In this document: in pieces, positions 19,690 through 54,643 of the stretch
Layout: every line of letters begins with the position of its first letter
How positions within the stretch are numbered: the stretch's first letter is position 1
DNA from: a phage
Assembly: GCA_028030915.1 (NCBI GenBank)
Contig: GCA_028030915.1_4867.1
DNA: 64,000 nt
Direction: 5' to 3' (one strand)
Program-made: the position numbers and the translations under genes
The notes under the pieces: generated by a model
Seen by the model: only the letters and a program-made list of their open reading frames with translations
The model's database searches: none
What the model was told of the DNA's origin: nothing

Positions 19690-20190
19690 CTATTTGAAAC
19701 TATTTGGGATGATTTTCTCTGCTTCCCTCAGCAGGGTGTCCGGTAAATAGAATCGATAAGTCTGCTCCGTGTGCTGTAGTCGTTTCTGTAAGTGTATAAA
19801 GATTTCCAATCGCTCATGGTAACGTAACCAACCGTTAGCCATCCCTAGGGGCGGTATCGCAATCCCTCCTTCTAAGTCTTCCCCTAGTCGCGCCAGCGCA
19901 TCAATGCCGGACGTGACATAGTAAATCTGCGATTTATAGCGAAAATGGGTTTTAGTAGGAAGGAGTATTACCCCTTCCTCAGGATAACAATAGACCTCAC
20001 CGATAACGATTTGCTCTTTACGGCATTTCTGGCGATAGTCATTATAAAGCGATGGGAAGCGTTCTCGGCACGCCAAAGCAATACCCCTTCCCATCGCACC
20101 AACGCAATTAACTGTAACGACCTTGAAGCGCTCAGGCGCGTTAAACAGGTCGTGGGAGATAACGGCCTCGTCGATCAGTTCTAGTGACAT
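19690..20190 (-). CDS. macro-domain protein, TARG1/DarG-like (candidate ADP-ribosyl hydrolase)
   Basis: VTVNCVGAMGRGIALACRERFP resembles the TARG1/DarG-type macro signature (C-x-x-x-x-MG-x-GIA...FK..F); downstream IAIPPLGMANGWL resembles the PRIGCGLDRL region. Confidence 0.6.
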   Translation of the reverse strand: MSLELIDEAVISHDLFNAPERFKVVTVNCVGAMGRGIALACRERFPSLYNDYRQKCRKEQIVIGEVYCYPEEGVILLPTKTHFRYKSQIYYVTSGIDALARLGEDLEGGIAIPPLGMANGWLRYHERLEIFIHLQKRLQHTEQTYRFYLPDTLLREAEKIIPNSFK

Positions 20191-20389
20191 CTATTGCCAT
20201 ACCCCATTGTGAAATAACCGGAGACTGAAGCAACGATTCCAGCTCAGTAAGAACTCTGGCTTTTGCTTCTTCGCGCAACTTACGGACTTCCGGGTCAGGT
20301 TTGCCTGCGCCCAAATATTGGGGTTCTGTTTGTGGGGTAGGGAAGCCACAGAAAGAACCAACCGTTATTCCGATGATTGTTTTTTGCAT

Positions 20390-21112: not shown

Positions 21113-21601
21113 CTATGCTACCGCAGTCCTTAAAGGTTCATCTGCTTCCGCAGGAACCTGCTTCTTAAATTCAAGCCATTGTCCGTCTGTAGAGACGGTC
21201 TTGTCAAAACCGCGAGCGGTAAAGAACGCAATACCAGCTTCCTGGCAAGCGTATATTCCCCCATGCGCACTGGTGAACTGTTCATTCACATCAAGCGCAT
21301 CAAAAATCTGCGTCATCGTTTTACGACGGCGTGCCATTTCAGACACGAACATCGTACGAATCTTCAGAACCCCAGCGATTACGCGATACAAACAGTAACC
21401 AACAGGGGTACCCCCTTCCAGAGCAACACAAGCACGGTTCCCCGCCAACAGTTTCTCCAGAGTGAGGTTCGGAATCTCACCTTTTTCGATATGGAGTATG
21501 GTACGTTGGTGGTTCAGAAATTTATAATGCAGCCCCAACAGCTGTTTATTTTGTGCTTCCGTTAAATCTGAGGATGAGGAAAGAATGACAATTTCGGCCA
21601 T
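21113..21601 (-). CDS. possible GNAT-family acetyltransferase (weak)
   Basis: C-terminal AFFTARGF resembles the GNAT motif B (FY-x-x-x-GF); start set at an internal Met with AGGAA RBS. Confidence 0.3.
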   Translation of the reverse strand: MAEIVILSSSSDLTEAQNKQLLGLHYKFLNHQRTILHIEKGEIPNLTLEKLLAGNRACVALEGGTPVGYCLYRVIAGVLKIRTMFVSEMARRRKTMTQIFDALDVNEQFTSAHGGIYACQEAGIAFFTARGFDKTVSTDGQWLEFKKQVPAEADEPLRTAVA

Positions 21602-22726
21602 GAGCTGAATTCCTAAGTGAGCTTTCACCTGCGATGAAAGCGAGTAACGAAGAATTGCGTTTGTGTTTTCTTAAGTTTACCGGTAAAGCTTAGCGGTGTA
21701 TACCGCCAGAGGTGAAGACCAGTTCTCTATCGGAACCGTGTCTTTAATCAGCAACGACGTTGAAAACGTCGCGATGCTGAGGTAACCTTCCGTCGCCACA
21801 TTCGCTCATGGCGCTTCTGATTACCACGCCAGTCTTCCCCGACTGTACGTGAAACTGCAAAATCATCCGGCCCGCAGACTTCCGCGATGTCTGCTAGAAG
21901 GTTCTTTGAAGACCCTATAGCCATCCCCACACTCGAAAGAACGATACGCCGGGTTGGCTCGGCCGCCCCTGAACCCACGACCACGGGATCAGAGACTGTT
22001 TCACTGTCACATGATACTTCTCCCACTTCGTAATTACCCTCCTGTTAAAACCAACCTTGCGTCAATGCAAGGATTGCGCCTAGGGCGTATGCGCCTGCTC
22101 CTAGTACCAGACTACAGATGATACACCCAACCCACTTCACTAAAATAACCATGATGCCAGAAATGCTCCGATTGCACAGATGATAATCGTAATGCCAAGG
22201 TCTGTCCAGGTGGCACCATCATACGCACCTGTTGCAATCATGGCTGCGTTGACACTATTCACGACTGTCATAAGCCGGGTCCCTTAAACGCGGGGGCTTG
22301 CTCCACAGATTACCGAAGTAAACCCCTTCTAAGAACACCAAAACAACTAAGCCCCAAAAGGCAGGCGTAGCGCGAGACATGAAAATACCGAGTAGCACCA
22401 CAGTGTGCATTACCACAACTGCCCAAAACTTTAAACGACCAGGTTTACGTCTTGCCATGGAATGCCCATCCTTTCGTGCGGATAATCCAACCCCAGGCAC
22501 CACGAATCAACCACAGTGCAATACCGGTTAATACGATACCTTCAATCATGTCCGTTCTCCTATATCTCGCCACTCACAACGCGTGTCAAAAAGGCGTTCT
22601 TTAAGAGCAGAGGCTAAATAGACAACTGCAGCGATAACCACCACGGCTGCACAAAAGGAGAGGTACAGTACCATCACAACAAACTGAAGGAACTGAAAAC
22701 CCCACCAAGCCCATAAGCGCCAACCT

Positions 22727-25237
22727 TTATGATGCATATTTGATTATTACCCCTTCGTTATACACCGGTGGAAGCGTTACACCTTCTGGTTCTACGACAC
22801 AGTAGGTGGCTTCGTTAAGTTTAGAATGAACTTCCGCTTCATGCGAAACGACCAGCAATTGAGAAAACTCTCCCGACAACGCCAACGATTTAATGAAGTT
22901 AACTAATCGGTTTTTGTGTTCTTCATCCATGCCTTCAGATGGTTCATCCAATAACAAAGGATAATTTTGTAAACCAAGTGCTTTATACGCCGTTAAACGA
23001 AACATCATGTTGAAAATGATACGCTGTGCTTTTGAACCTTTCTTCACGTCAGGTACCAGTTCTTCATGGTCTTTTAATCGTACCGGGAATGTGTAATCCA
23101 AATCCCCGTCGGTTAAATCGCACGGAATAACCTGCATCGGATATGCCCACACCATTTCGATATACCGATTCATTAAATCCATGATGCGTGTAATCGCAGC
23201 ATAAAAGTAACGACGCAATAATCCTTTTTCGGGGGAGACGGCATTGATAATCAATCTGGCATGGTGATGCTCTTTGAGCAGTTCAGCTTGTTCCTTTTCC
23301 AGTTCCGCTAAACGTGCAATAGCCCCTTCCATTTGACGAAACCGTTCACGAGCTGAAGTATACGCATCGAGCTTCGCTTCGCGTCGGTTTAACAACTCGC
23401 GAACCACGACGTTGTTAACGGAGATGTTCATTTCCGATACCAGATGTTCGTAGCCCTTTTGGAAACGTTCGATTGCTTCTTTGGTTTGTTGCAGTTGGAT
23501 GGTTTCGCGTTCCAGCTCATTGGCTTGTCTGCGGTATTCTATCAGTCGACGGTTAGCCCCGTCTAGTTGTGAACGGATATGTTCAATTTTCTGACTCAGC
23601 GCACCATCAACATTACCTACTGCGGCAACAGCCTCTTGCCATTCCCGTTCCGCTGTTGCAAGCTTCGCTGATTGACGCAGATACATCATGGCCGAATCTA
23701 ACTCTTCGGTAAAGGCACGTGCAATGGCACCATAACGATCCCGCGACGTGGTGAAGATATCCAACTCTTGCAGTTTACGGAAAAACAAACCGACAACGGG
23801 ATGGTTGGAATACGACATGACAATTTCGCGAATCGTACGTAAGCTACGGACGTCCTCTTCAATCTCTTTGCGGTCACGCAAAAGACTATCCATTTCGTCT
23901 TTCAGCTGTTTTTTCCAACCTTCATTATCGTTGATGGCCTTTTCAGTTTCAGGTAACGACTTACGAATCCCAGGACGGAAACGGTGGTTACACTGTGGAC
24001 AATCAACTTCTGCAGTTTCTAAGAAGTGTTGACGGTCGTGGTATAAACCGTGTAGCACATTCTCACAACGTTGCAACTTTTCAGATAGACCCGCAGAGGT
24101 TAAATCCATACCCTGTAAACGCTTCTCTAACGCTCCCAGGCGCTCTGTTGTCTTTAACTGGTCCAGATGCATGGACAACGGTAAATTCCAGTTACAGGCG
24201 TCGTTTAACGCGTTCTGAATGCTATCCACGTCGATGCGGGTACCTTCAAACAGAGCCGGGAACATCCAGTTCTGTTGGAACGTTGCCAGTTCCTGTTTTA
24301 AGCTGTCGATTGTTTGTTTTAGACCGGTATGGTTGCGCATCAGATATGTTTGACGCGACTCCTCATCCAGTAGCTGTGACAACTCTTTATTGTACATGTT
24401 GCATTCAGTTTCAGCAGAGGCAGCTTGCTCACGCCAGGCAACCACACGACTTTGAAACTCGTTAATCAGTTCGTCAGAAGGCAGAACGCCATAACGTTCC
24501 ATAATGAGTTTTACAGCCGGTTGCAACGAAGCAATGCGTTTCCGGATACTGTCAACCGAAACAGCGTTATCTAAACCGGGCCTTGCTTCAATTGTGCGGT
24601 TTAATTCTTGAAGCTCAGCATCGAGTTCTTTCAAACGAACTTCTAAACGTGCACGATCTTCTTCATCGTCAACGACGCGCATTTTTGCTTCGCCGATTTT
24701 TCGTCCGGTGTGTTCGATGGCCCCGCTTAAACTGGAAGCGAGTTTACGCAAACGTCGATAGCAGCCAACAACGTATGTCAGATCAGATTCTGACATTAAC
24801 GTAAACCATTTGCGACGAACTTCGGTAGTGGCGTCAGTTAATAAGGTCTCGCCATTAATTAACTCTTTGATTTCTTTGGTGATTCCGGTTAACTGTTCCA
24901 CCATGGAGTTGTAAACTTTGGCGTTTACCGAGTCCACAATGGGGACGCCTTTGGTGATATTGAAAATACTACAAGACAAAGAAGACCCACGTCGCAGGAC
25001 TTCAAATTTAAGACGGTCGTCCCCGACTAACGCGTAGTTAGTGTAAGAACCGCCTTCGCGGAATTCAGATTTTGCTGGAGCTAAGGGGAGAAAAACAGAC
25101 AGGAGGCTTGTTTTACCGCAACCATTGCCACCGAGGATGATGGTAACGGTTGACTTAAGGGTGAAATCAAACGTTTCGATTTCGTGTAACCCCATGCCGG
25201 TAAATCCTTTCAAAATGATACGTTCGACCTTGAGCAT
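22727..25237 (-). CDS. SbcC/Rad50-like recombination ATPase (836 aa)
   Basis: Walker A GGNGCGKTS; long coiled-coil middle with CPQC zinc hook; Walker B/D-loop LLLDEPSEGMDEE; H-loop VVSHEAE. Confidence 0.85.
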   Translation of the reverse strand: MLKVERIILKGFTGMGLHEIETFDFTLKSTVTIILGGNGCGKTSLLSVFLPLAPAKSEFREGGSYTNYALVGDDRLKFEVLRRGSSLSCSIFNITKGVPIVDSVNAKVYNSMVEQLTGITKEIKELINGETLLTDATTEVRRKWFTLMSESDLTYVVGCYRRLRKLASSLSGAIEHTGRKIGEAKMRVVDDEEDRARLEVRLKELDAELQELNRTIEARPGLDNAVSVDSIRKRIASLQPAVKLIMERYGVLPSDELINEFQSRVVAWREQAASAETECNMYNKELSQLLDEESRQTYLMRNHTGLKQTIDSLKQELATFQQNWMFPALFEGTRIDVDSIQNALNDACNWNLPLSMHLDQLKTTERLGALEKRLQGMDLTSAGLSEKLQRCENVLHGLYHDRQHFLETAEVDCPQCNHRFRPGIRKSLPETEKAINDNEGWKKQLKDEMDSLLRDRKEIEEDVRSLRTIREIVMSYSNHPVVGLFFRKLQELDIFTTSRDRYGAIARAFTEELDSAMMYLRQSAKLATAEREWQEAVAAVGNVDGALSQKIEHIRSQLDGANRRLIEYRRQANELERETIQLQQTKEAIERFQKGYEHLVSEMNISVNNVVVRELLNRREAKLDAYTSARERFRQMEGAIARLAELEKEQAELLKEHHHARLIINAVSPEKGLLRRYFYAAITRIMDLMNRYIEMVWAYPMQVIPCDLTDGDLDYTFPVRLKDHEELVPDVKKGSKAQRIIFNMMFRLTAYKALGLQNYPLLLDEPSEGMDEEHKNRLVNFIKSLALSGEFSQLLVVSHEAEVHSKLNEATYCVVEPEGVTLPPVYNEGVIIKYAS

Positions 25238-51878: not shown

Positions 51879-52793
51879 ATGACAGATCAAGTAGAATCCA
51901 GGATCTCGTCTGAACTGTACGACAAACCGTCAATTCTGTCGGTTGTCGCAACTTCTAAGTGTAACTTAGACTGTAGCTTCTGTGGAGGGGCTTATTACAT
52001 GGATAGAGAAGATACTTCTCGTGAGTTTCAACGTGAAGAGATTCTCTCGATTTTAGAGAAGAATCCGGATATCGGTGAGATTCATTGGACGGGCGGTGAG
52101 CCGCTGTTAGCGCAGCGCAAGATTGAAGACTTCGTGAACGAGTTGAAGGAGTCTCATCCGAACCTCCGTCATCACATGTACACCAACGGTTTAAAGATGC
52201 GTAAATCACATCTGCCGTTGCTGAAACAGTTCGACCTTATCTTTGTGTCCATTGACGGCTACAAGAAGTCGGAACGTCCGTTTATGAACTTTGTAAACGG
52301 TGGTAATCATGAAGCGCTGGAAGTGCTGTACGAGCTGGACAACTATTACACCTGGGGTGTGATGACGCGTGACCAGTTAGGTGATAAACGCTGGTACGAA
52401 GATTTCATCGAGCTGCACCGAGCAATCTATCATTACCGTCCAGGTGGGATGTCGTTGCTGTTTGATGCGATGATGCCGAAACCGTTATCGCCAGACCACG
52501 TCATGAACTTCATGTACGGGTATTGGAAAATACTCGACAATATCGAACGCCTTAACATGCAGAACGATTCTGAATGTGGGCTTGCGATCAGTAAAATGTT
52601 CGATACCGAGTGCAACACGTGCAGTGAAGTTCTGTGGCTTAACGCCGACGGTACGCAGGAGCAAATTCAGAACGCCCCAGAGATATTGGAAGTCGGCTGT
52701 AATCGCCTGGCGCGTTCTATCGGCGTTGATGCGTATAACTACATCAACCGTGTAATTTCTGCTAAGCGTAAACGGGCGGCGAACAATGAGTAA
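51879..52793 (+). CDS. radical SAM enzyme (about 305 aa) with short Cys-containing C-terminal extension
   Basis: CNLDCSFC (C-x3-C-x2-C) near the N-terminus, WTGGEPLL, YTNG, SIDG; C-terminal ECGLAISKMFDTECNTCSEV...GC; GGAG RBS before the ATG at 51879 (the track ORF starts at an upstream TTG). Confidence 0.7.
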   Translation: MTDQVESRISSELYDKPSILSVVATSKCNLDCSFCGGAYYMDREDTSREFQREEILSILEKNPDIGEIHWTGGEPLLAQRKIEDFVNELKESHPNLRHHMYTNGLKMRKSHLPLLKQFDLIFVSIDGYKKSERPFMNFVNGGNHEALEVLYELDNYYTWGVMTRDQLGDKRWYEDFIELHRAIYHYRPGGMSLLFDAMMPKPLSPDHVMNFMYGYWKILDNIERLNMQNDSECGLAISKMFDTECNTCSEVLWLNADGTQEQIQNAPEILEVGCNRLARSIGVDAYNYINRVISAKRKRAANNE

Positions 52794-54114
52794 CAGCGAA
52801 CAGCAAATCCAGTACACACCACGCACATATCAGGTCGTGACTAACTTGTCATGTAACCTGGACTGCGAATACTGCTACGAGCGTAAATACCCACGCAACA
52901 ACAAAGTAGCTGACGTGATTGATTTTATCCACGCTTGCTTCGAGCGTGATAAAGATATCCCGAACGTTGAAGTCATCATCGATATCATCGGTGGTGAGCC
53001 GTTCATGCAGCCTAAACTTCTTTTGGCGGCCTTTGAAACCGCAGAGAAGTTATGTGCAGAACACAATCGCCCGTATATGTTCAGTATCTCCACGAACGGT
53101 ACGCTTCTGGACCGTCCGCTGAACAAAGAAATTATCGAGCGCTGGAAAGACAAACTGTCTATTGGGGTCTCCATCGATGGTTTACCTGAAATCCATGACA
53201 AATATCGTATCTTTACCACGACGCGTGAAGGGTCGTACGAAGCTGCGGTACGCGGTTACAATTACCTGAAGAGTGTTGGCATCGCTGAGCTGGGCGTAAA
53301 GGCGACGTTTACGATCGATACATTGCCGCACTATGCCGCCAGCATGAAATCGTTAATTGACATGTCCGGCGGTGGTACCATTTCTGGTAACGTAACGTAC
53401 GAAGATATCCTGCCGCGCCATATGGCGTTGGATATCGCGAACCAGATGATGGACGTGATGGACTACTGGATTGAGAAGGGTCTGCACACCAACCCGCGTA
53501 ACACGATTACGCACATCATCCCGGATGGCCTGAACTTTATGGCAACTTGGGACCCGGATTGGCGTGACAAACTCTTACATGACGACTCTGTTCGTCTCGA
53601 CCCAGAACGCCTGAAACCGTACTGCGGTACGTTGACGCACATGACCTGTCTCGGCTTTGATCGCAAGATTTACGGTTGTAACCGTTTCATGTCCACGGTA
53701 ACTTCCCGTTCTGCTGTAGCAGAACTGGTCGGTCGTGAGTTTGTGAGCCTGGACGGTGGTAAGCTGTTAGAAGAGATTCAAACGCAGTACACCAACTACC
53801 CAGAAACCTGTTTAGGGTGTCCGATGAAACACAGCTGCGGTAGCTGCGCAGCAGCATCGTACGAAAACGGTGAAGGTACACTGGAAGACCGTAAAGCGTA
53901 TCACGCCGAGCGTCGTCAGTGTGGTTGGACTACTGCGAAGCTGATGGCGGCGGAATATTGGTATCAGAAAACTGGTACGACCCGCGCATCAGATTTGCAC
54001 GATAAATCCATGTGCTATTGTTCACGTTGTGTACGCCAACGTGCTGAAGCAGAAAAATTACAAAACGGAGCCCAGAATGAAGTCAATACTGATTCACAAT
54101 TTTACGAAGCGTAA
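52786..54114 (+). CDS. radical SAM enzyme with SPASM-like Cys-rich C-terminal domain (442 aa)
   Basis: CNLDCEYC (C-x3-C-x2-C), GGEPF, STNG, SIDG; C-terminal cysteine cluster CGTLTHMTCLGFDRKIYGCNRF...CLGCPMKHSCGSCAAASY; start overlaps the upstream rSAM stop by 8 nt. Confidence 0.75.
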   Translation: MSNSEQQIQYTPRTYQVVTNLSCNLDCEYCYERKYPRNNKVADVIDFIHACFERDKDIPNVEVIIDIIGGEPFMQPKLLLAAFETAEKLCAEHNRPYMFSISTNGTLLDRPLNKEIIERWKDKLSIGVSIDGLPEIHDKYRIFTTTREGSYEAAVRGYNYLKSVGIAELGVKATFTIDTLPHYAASMKSLIDMSGGGTISGNVTYEDILPRHMALDIANQMMDVMDYWIEKGLHTNPRNTITHIIPDGLNFMATWDPDWRDKLLHDDSVRLDPERLKPYCGTLTHMTCLGFDRKIYGCNRFMSTVTSRSAVAELVGREFVSLDGGKLLEEIQTQYTNYPETCLGCPMKHSCGSCAAASYENGEGTLEDRKAYHAERRQCGWTTAKLMAAEYWYQKTGTTRASDLHDKSMCYCSRCVRQRAEAEKLQNGAQNEVNTDSQFYEA

Positions 54115-54643
54115 ACTGCACTTGGTCGATCGCTTCCTGCGCAAAAGCAAGCTGTACAATGTGCACGCAATTGTGGCAGGGGAAGACTTCACTGATGAAA
54201 TCCAAAGCCTGTTGATTAAATACGGGCTGAATGTGATGATCCCGGTCTACTGCGTTGAGAAAGGACACGAGTCTGTCGCGGAAATCGAAAAGCGCAACCC
54301 TGGCTTTGAGAAGCGACTGCTTGCATACCCACGCCACAAAATCGAACTGCTACGACACTCTATTGATGAAGCCAGTCCTGAAAGTTTAGTGGCATTGGGC
54401 TTGTCTTTCCCGCGGATGCGTATTCGTAACTTACGCTCCAATAACCCGGTTGACGCTTATTACACAGAGCGTCAAATCTTCGAAGAACACCTGCTCCCGC
54501 AGTTGGAAGAAGAAGAGCAACACAACATTTCTCTGTTGTGGGCCGGTAACCTCGATCAGGACTTCCAGATGCTGGACTTCGGTTTGTTGTTAGAACTTGG
54601 CCTGATTGAGGAGGACGAATGTCTGTTACTGACAAAAGCTTAA
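54077..54643 (+). CDS. hypothetical protein (188 aa from the internal Met with GGAG RBS)
   Basis: The track ORF starts at 54029 inside the rSAM gene; the Met at 54077 has an RBS but still overlaps the rSAM 3' end by 38 nt. Confidence 0.4.
   Translation: MKSILIHNFTKRKLHLVDRFLRKSKLYNVHAIVAGEDFTDEIQSLLIKYGLNVMIPVYCVEKGHESVAEIEKRNPGFEKRLLAYPRHKIELLRHSIDEASPESLVALGLSFPRMRIRNLRSNNPVDAYYTERQIFEEHLLPQLEEEEQHNISLLWAGNLDQDFQMLDFGLLLELGLIEEDECLLLTKA

Follow-up and report, generated by a model that had tools for sequence, protein, structure and literature searches.

An orphan DarG-like macrodomain in an SPN3US-like jumbo phage and its probable role as an AdfM-type enzyme against DarTG2

Introduction

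What a single macrodomain may do in a phage genome is the question raised by a minus-strand gene located in the 64,000-nucleotide stretch of phage DNA analysed here (the window). The original prediction, made from the letters of the DNA, placed the gene product in the TARG1/DarG class of macrodomains, which remove ADP-ribose from proteins or DNA, and offered two roles for it. The protein could neutralize host immunity based on ADP-ribosyltransferases (ARTs), whether DarT-like DNA ADP-ribosylation or other ART toxins, or it could reverse modifications imposed by the phage itself.

Macrodomains of this kind have been found in nucleus-forming phages. Morgan et al. (Cell Rep 2026, PMC13309987) described AdfM (anti-DarT factor macro), DarG2-like macrodomains present in about half of the chimalliviruses, the named members being PhiKZ gp104, PhiPA3 gp108, Goslar gp83 and Asesino gp217. 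PhiKZ gp104 strips the ADP-ribose installed by DarT2 from a TNTC ssDNA substrate and fully rescues E. coli from DarT2 toxicity. PhiKZ and PhiPA3 without AdfM plate with titres 3-6 logs lower on DarTG2-expressing hosts, in which their DNA replication is reduced and packaging is blocked, and GFP fusions of the AdfM proteins from PhiKZ, PhiPA3 and Erwinia phage Asesino locate to the phage nucleus (PMC13309987). AdfM showed that the jumbo-phage nucleus is an imperfect shield that needs an enzymatic back-up, and more generally, the orphan antitoxin domains of phages are instances of viruses borrowing the off-switch of the defence system itself. Computed here for the gene of the window were the domain identity, the closeness of sequence and fold to DarG, the conservation of the catalytic residues, the orphan status, and the orthology and synteny with AdfM.

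The gene and its genome

The gene is an open reading frame with an ATG start that fills its interval exactly, the end coordinate counting the stop codon (Table 1). The two motifs that had led to the macrodomain assignment are VNCVGAMGRGIAL, residues 27-39, and IAIPPLGMANGWL, residues 110-122 of the 166-residue translation. The phage origin of the DNA was borne out, as the 6 kb around the gene match about 34 SPN3US-like jumbo phages at 97-99% identity; these have genomes of 233-243 kb, belong to the genus Seoulvirus and infect mostly Salmonella, with E. coli and Proteus isolates too. The orthologue of the gene in SPN3US is SPN3US_0196; that phage has a diverged chimallin homologue, gp244, and forms the square-lattice shell that characterizes nucleus-forming phages (PMC9365700). 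The window is thus DNA of an SPN3US-like nucleus-forming jumbo phage (Seoulvirus). The GC content of the gene, 0.45-0.48, is that of its flanks and gives no sign of recent horizontal acquisition. A scan for sigma-70 promoters and terminators yielded nothing informative, the consensus being inapplicable where a phage transcribes with RNA polymerases of its own.

Table 1. Features of the window, in positions of the whole stretch
Feature	Position	Strand	Remarks
adfM-like gene	19690..20190	-	single macrodomain, 166 aa; orthologue of SPN3US gp196 and Asesino gp217
Asn28 codon (in TVNCVG)	20107..20109	-	equivalent by alignment to TaqDarG N22 and PhiKZ AdfM N23
Lys80 codon (in PTK)	19951..19953	-	equivalent to TaqDarG catalytic Lys80, PhiKZ AdfM K78 and TARG1 K84
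G116-M-A-N-G120 codons	19831..19845	-	ADP-ribose diphosphate-binding loop; equivalent to TaqDarG G117-A-G119-N120-G121
82-aa ORF	20141-20389	-	SPN3US gp195 orthologue; shares 50 nt with the start of the macro gene, in another frame
GNAT-family acetyltransferase gene	21113-21628	-	PHROG 3810, E 4e-42
SbcC/SMC-like protein gene	22727-25237	-	836 aa
Two adjacent radical SAM genes	~51880-54120		mapped from SPLA3 150925-153160

A macrodomain of the DarG type

Profile searches returned the macro fold through several models, with scores well beyond chance, the more specific models being the unambiguous ones. The protein matched PHROG 335 with an E value of 1.3e-29; in PADLOC its sole match was DarG (E 4.3e-32, model positions 7-147 of 329), and in NCBIfam it was the equivalog NF048014, 'antitoxin DarG', with 107.2 bits against a cut-off of 250 and over positions 7-150 of 338. 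Pfam Macro (PF01661) was marginal when taken alone, scoring 21.7 bits against a gathering score of 22.0 (E 2e-4); a precomputed PF01661 match is present in several homologues at 60-65% identity. Among PDB sequences, phmmer retrieved the M. tuberculosis DarG macrodomain (5m3i, E 1.9e-20) and that of T. aquaticus (5m31, E 8.7e-19). A family profile built from 40 sequences ranked the solved structures further, with E values of 3.4e-55 for M. tuberculosis and 4.8e-51 for T. aquaticus DarG, 1e-35 for T. africanus DarTG (7omu), 3.5e-12 for TARG1, ~1e-6 for alphavirus nsP3 and 1.8e-4 for Poa1p.

The structural comparison led to the same order. The AlphaFold2 model computed on the 40-sequence family alignment (pLDDT 93, pTM 0.89) has a macrodomain fold, and in the Foldseek search against the PDB its best match was T. 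aquaticus DarG (5m3e, E 7.7e-14, TM 0.83). The top matches 5m3e, 5m31, 5m3i and 7omu had E values from 8e-14 to 4e-10, and the succession of T. aquaticus DarG, M. tuberculosis DarG, 7omu and TARG1 (E 2e-7) agrees with the profile ranking. The PDB matches are mostly solved macrodomains, a few low-ranked ones being computationally designed serine hydrolases. The protein is therefore a single DarG-like macrodomain with TARG1 as a distant second, so that the TARG1/DarG class originally proposed is confirmed by both profile and fold searches, DarG being much the closer of the two.

Database labels would suggest a different function, that of a housekeeping enzyme, either an ADP-ribose-1''-phosphate phosphatase of the Poa1p type or an O-acetyl-ADP-ribose deacetylase. 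PHROG 335 carries the label 'phosphatase', several Erwinia phage records read 'putative Appr-1-p processing protein', and there are weak matches to Poa1p structures. Those matches are marginal (E 0.05 with the single sequence, besides the profile value given above) and cover the first ~60 residues only, and in the Foldseek ranking Poa1p stands 29th or lower. Structures of the MacroD/YmdB type are absent from the PDB matches of the family profile and from those of Foldseek. Moreover, 'phosphatase' is a generic legacy name for macrodomains, and the entry for the M. tuberculosis DarG structure itself bears the title 'RNase III inhibitor'. A housekeeping role is consequently very unlikely indeed.

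The active site

In T. aquaticus DarG (TaqDarG) the K80A mutation inactivates the enzyme and abolishes rescue from DarT, and N22A ranks second in its effect on turnover of the substrate (Jankevicius et al. 2016, PMC5179494); in PhiKZ AdfM, activity is reduced by N23A (PMC13309987). The equivalent residues of the window protein, Lys80 and Asn28, are invariant in alignments of 40-43 family members, and so are Gly116 and Gly120 of the diphosphate-binding loop. Since macrodomains are binders of ADP-ribose derivatives, and sponges that counter signalling-based immunity are known from phages, the protein might be pictured as a non-catalytic sponge that would soak up signalling molecules of immunity or products derived from NAD. 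The strict conservation of the catalytic Lys and Asn across the family speaks against it, as does the PhiKZ homologue, which is an enzyme and becomes less active in the N23A mutant; a sponge is accordingly extremely unlikely, and the protein is regarded in what follows as a predicted hydrolase.

With respect to TaqDarG, W83 is replaced by F83, G119 by A118, G122 by W121, Q34 by A40 and K29 by R35, and since several residues of the ADP-ribose pocket differ, the specificity could differ as well. The exchange at A118 is also found in the characterized PhiKZ AdfM (LGCANGG). In Asesino AdfM the diphosphate loop has a His (GMAHGW) at the place where N120 of TaqDarG and N119 of the window protein contact ADP-ribose, which indicates that the loop Asn varies within the named AdfM set.

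Comparison with human TARG1 (C6orf130; 4J5S) bears on the substrate. Both proteins share the macrodomain subclass fold and the position of the catalytic Lys, but identity is only ~16-18%, and TARG1 acts on Glu-ADPr of proteins. At the column of TARG1 Asp125 the window protein has Gly120, as DarG does, and thus the Lys84 and Asp125 pair of TARG1 is incomplete; conversely, the Asn of TVNxVG in DarG and AdfM is a Ser in TARG1. These differences weigh against the proposal that the protein is a broader or different TARG1-like de-ADP-ribosylase, removing protein or RNA marks left by other host ARTs (for instance RNA-targeting ones) or by the phage's own, with DNA thymidine not its main substrate. 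The proposal draws on the second place of TARG1 by structure and sequence with the catalytic Lys in common, on the residues F83, A118, W121 and A40 lining the pocket, which differ from DarG, and on the label 'protein-ADP-ribosylation protein' in one GenBank record. Apart from the two substitutions just mentioned, the profile score of TARG1 is ~40 orders of magnitude worse than that of DarG, and the phenotype of PhiKZ lacking the homologue is specific to DarTG2. The genetic surroundings, described below, likewise disfavour a TARG1-like enzyme, which we hold to be improbable.

An orphan antitoxin domain

DarG of the DarTG2 systems (5M31/5M3E/5M3I; NF048014) is the closest relative by sequence and fold, and by analogy with TaqDarG, for which the activity has been shown, hydrolysis of ADP-ribosyl-thymidine in ssDNA is predicted. 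The window protein differs from DarG in that it is devoid of the C-terminal DarT-binding domain and is borne by a phage, outside a toxin-antitoxin operon. Its match to the DarG models is confined to their macro half, and it lacks the full-length DarG architecture. The missing parts were sought elsewhere in the window by means of two HMMs, one for DarT, seeded from the P. aeruginosa 505 DarT2 together with 46 genomic DarTs, and one for the DarG C-terminal domain, made from 43 sequences. Against the 417 window ORFs of at least 40 aa the DarT HMM gave no match (best E 0.28), and neither did the C-terminal-domain HMM (best E 5.4). A linked toxin or a split antitoxin in the window was rejected, nothing better than E 0.28 appearing among the 417 ORFs. 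Pfam and PHROG scans of the 10 flanking ORFs found no ART or DUF4433 among them; they comprise an SLT transglycosylase, a GNAT acetyltransferase, phage families without assigned function and nothing else.

The cellular relatives have a different organization. The 80 closest were taken from among 185,579 species genomes, with ~44% as the top identity. Their median length is 361 aa and 64 of the 80 have at least 300 aa; in 46 of the 80 the same-strand ORF immediately upstream matches the DarT profile whose seed was P. aeruginosa 505 DarT2. Long relatives with an upstream DarT imply that the closest relatives in cells belong to genuine DarTG2 operons, and the absence of both DarT and the DarG C-terminal domain from the window makes the phage gene an orphan antitoxin catalytic domain.

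The lack of an ART beside the gene and of any window ORF matching the DarT profile also counts against a TARG1-like enzyme. With no ART nearby and with TARG1 Asp125 absent, the further roles that had been suggested, namely protection from other ART toxins and reversal of phage-imposed modifications, found no support.

Relationship to AdfM and proposed role

Among the named AdfM proteins, Asesino gp217 has 70% identity to the window protein over 166/166 aa and occupies an equivalent syntenic slot (SMC/SbcC-like ... macro-endolysin ... virion structural protein). Identity is 35% to PhiKZ gp104 (E 3e-25) and 30.7% to Goslar gp83 (E 4e-11). The window protein has in common with the chimallivirus AdfM a single DarG2-like macrodomain of ~160-190 aa, a nucleus-forming jumbo phage as its carrier, and the catalytic Asn and Lys. 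As judged from its sequence, it is a stand-alone DarG2-like macrodomain of a chimallin-encoding jumbo phage, that is, an AdfM by homology and architecture. This family is already known, having been characterized experimentally in 2025-2026, and the novelty of its Seoulvirus member is low.

The protein is probably, by analogy with those homologues, an anti-defence enzyme of the AdfM type, an orphan DarG2 macrodomain that would erase DarT2 marks inside the phage nucleus. In the model, the DarT2 toxin of a DarTG2-carrying host would ADP-ribosylate thymidines in the TNTC motifs of phage ssDNA, with the consequence of impaired replication and genome packaging. The macro protein, made during infection, would be imported into the chimallin-bounded nucleus, where its Lys80/Asn28 active site would hydrolyse the ADP-ribose-thymidine bond and return unmodified DNA. 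Since it lacks the C-terminal DarT-binding domain of DarG, it would act only catalytically on the DNA, with no sequestration of the toxin. The substrate, the anti-DarTG2 phenotype and the nuclear localization are drawn here from the published homologues; biochemistry and genetics come from PhiKZ gp104, at 35% identity, and Asesino gp217, at 70% identity, contributes localization only. The neutralization of DarT-type DNA ADP-ribosylation put forward originally is in this way supported, having been demonstrated for PhiKZ gp104 and accompanied by a nuclear location of the Asesino orthologue.

Avoidance of the DarT2 target motif by the phage was rejected. TNTC occurs in the window at an observed/expected ratio of 1.00 (rank 34 of 64), with ~2,080 sites on both strands. 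As the motif is not depleted, the genome offers abundant targets to DarT2.

Other phage proteins resemble the window protein to different degrees. T4 Tk.4, also named AdfM, in an independent preprint (HIDEN-SEQ, 10.1101/2025.11.20.689424), is likewise a stand-alone phage macrodomain that protects against DarTG2, but it belongs to a phage that does not form a nucleus and is only 27% identical over 63 aa. A common lineage with Tk.4 was rejected, the BLASTP similarity being essentially undetectable (E 0.009). AdfN and other orphan anti-DarTG1 enzymes of T4-like phages (PMC11825919) follow the same principle of an orphan antitoxin catalytic domain erasing DarT marks; AdfN differs in having a NADAR fold and in acting on the guanine-ADPr made by DarT1, whereas the present protein is a macrodomain expected to act on thymine-ADPr. 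Stand-alone DarG-like macrodomains with 30-38% identity are also found in many phages other than chimalliviruses, such as phiEco32-like podophages (SkaterBoy_Bas90, for example), Vibrio phage VAP7 and a Pseudanabaena cyanophage; the corresponding gene of Streptomyces and Arthrobacter phages is labelled ADP-ribosyltransferase. It follows that a strategy of the AdfM type may extend far beyond nucleus-forming phages.

The annotations of the orthologues are inconsistent: 'hypothetical protein', 'phosphatase', 'macro domain-containing protein' and 'protein-ADP-ribosylation protein' are all in use. The main value of the present analysis is to correct them, and we propose that the gp196 orthologues be relabelled as AdfM-like anti-DarTG2 DNA ADP-ribosylglycohydrolases, a predicted activity. 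Such an annotation predicts that SPN3US-like phages resist DarTG2-carrying hosts, a matter of practical weight in that SPN3US-like jumbo phages of Salmonella and E. coli are candidates for phage therapy and biocontrol.

A distinct branch and the overlapping reading frame

Within AdfM, the Seoulvirus and Erskinevirus proteins form a branch with its own pocket rim. In the window and Asesino proteins F takes the place of W after the catalytic Lys (PTKTHF), and the second Gly of the NGG loop is replaced by W; the ~14-aa insertion that precedes the IPPLG loop in PhiKZ gp104 is missing from the window protein. The branch is thereby characterized by Phe in place of the thymine-stacking Trp83, Trp in place of the second NGG Gly and Ala in place of Gln34, and an additional helix at the C terminus is likewise conserved in it.

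The start of the gene is overlapped by the 82-aa ORF (Table 1), for which Pfam and PHROG searches returned no match. This ORF has a counterpart in Asesino (L004:11517-11753), unannotated there, with 44% identity over 81 aa (E 2e-13), and the counterpart shares 47 nt with the start of gp217 (L004:11707-12207). The window phage and Asesino have the same first 12 residues in their macro proteins, which fits with a dual-coding constraint or with translational coupling.

From the modified rim, the extra helix and the overlapping frame, one may conceive that the Seoulvirus/Erskinevirus branch has broadened or shifted its substrates to other ADP-ribosylated bases, RNA or proteins, or that the macro protein and the 82-aa protein make up a two-part mimic of the antitoxin, the latter replacing the DarT-binding domain. 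We regard either possibility as unlikely, and the AdfM-type removal of DarT2 marks from DNA is the probable role of the window protein.

Database records and neighbouring genes

Records of several Salmonella phages give the impression that the gene has decayed. Natural gene loss in SPFM1/6/8/12/14/15/20, suggested by truncated homologues with the look of pseudogenes, was rejected after blastn comparison as an artefact of deposition. In LR535912.1 (SPFM14; locus L008) the sequence consists of consecutive 60-nt blocks, each matching the window at ~100% identity and in the same orientation, with the order of the blocks reversed. By implication, the SPFM1/6/8/12/15/20 records have the same reversed block order. 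The scrambling generates bogus truncated proteins (P0037-P0052) that mimic a frameshifted macro gene.

Copies of the protein, identical or 63% identical (P0001, P0014, P0016), are registered under isolates of Salmonella enterica, some of them on contigs of 79-243 kb. This suggests that assemblies of bacterial isolates contain complete jumbo-phage genomes, owing either to a carrier state or to contamination.

The GNAT-family acetyltransferase and SbcC/SMC-like genes are located a short way upstream of the macro gene and share its strand, with small uncharacterized ORFs in between. The Pfam match of the acetyltransferase is weak (Acetyltransf_1, 21.1 bits, barely over the cut-off). At the distant locus given in Table 1, two adjacent genes encode radical SAM domain proteins according to the PHROG-annotated SPLA3 genome; the pair adjoins large virion structural genes and is an unusual cargo for a phage.
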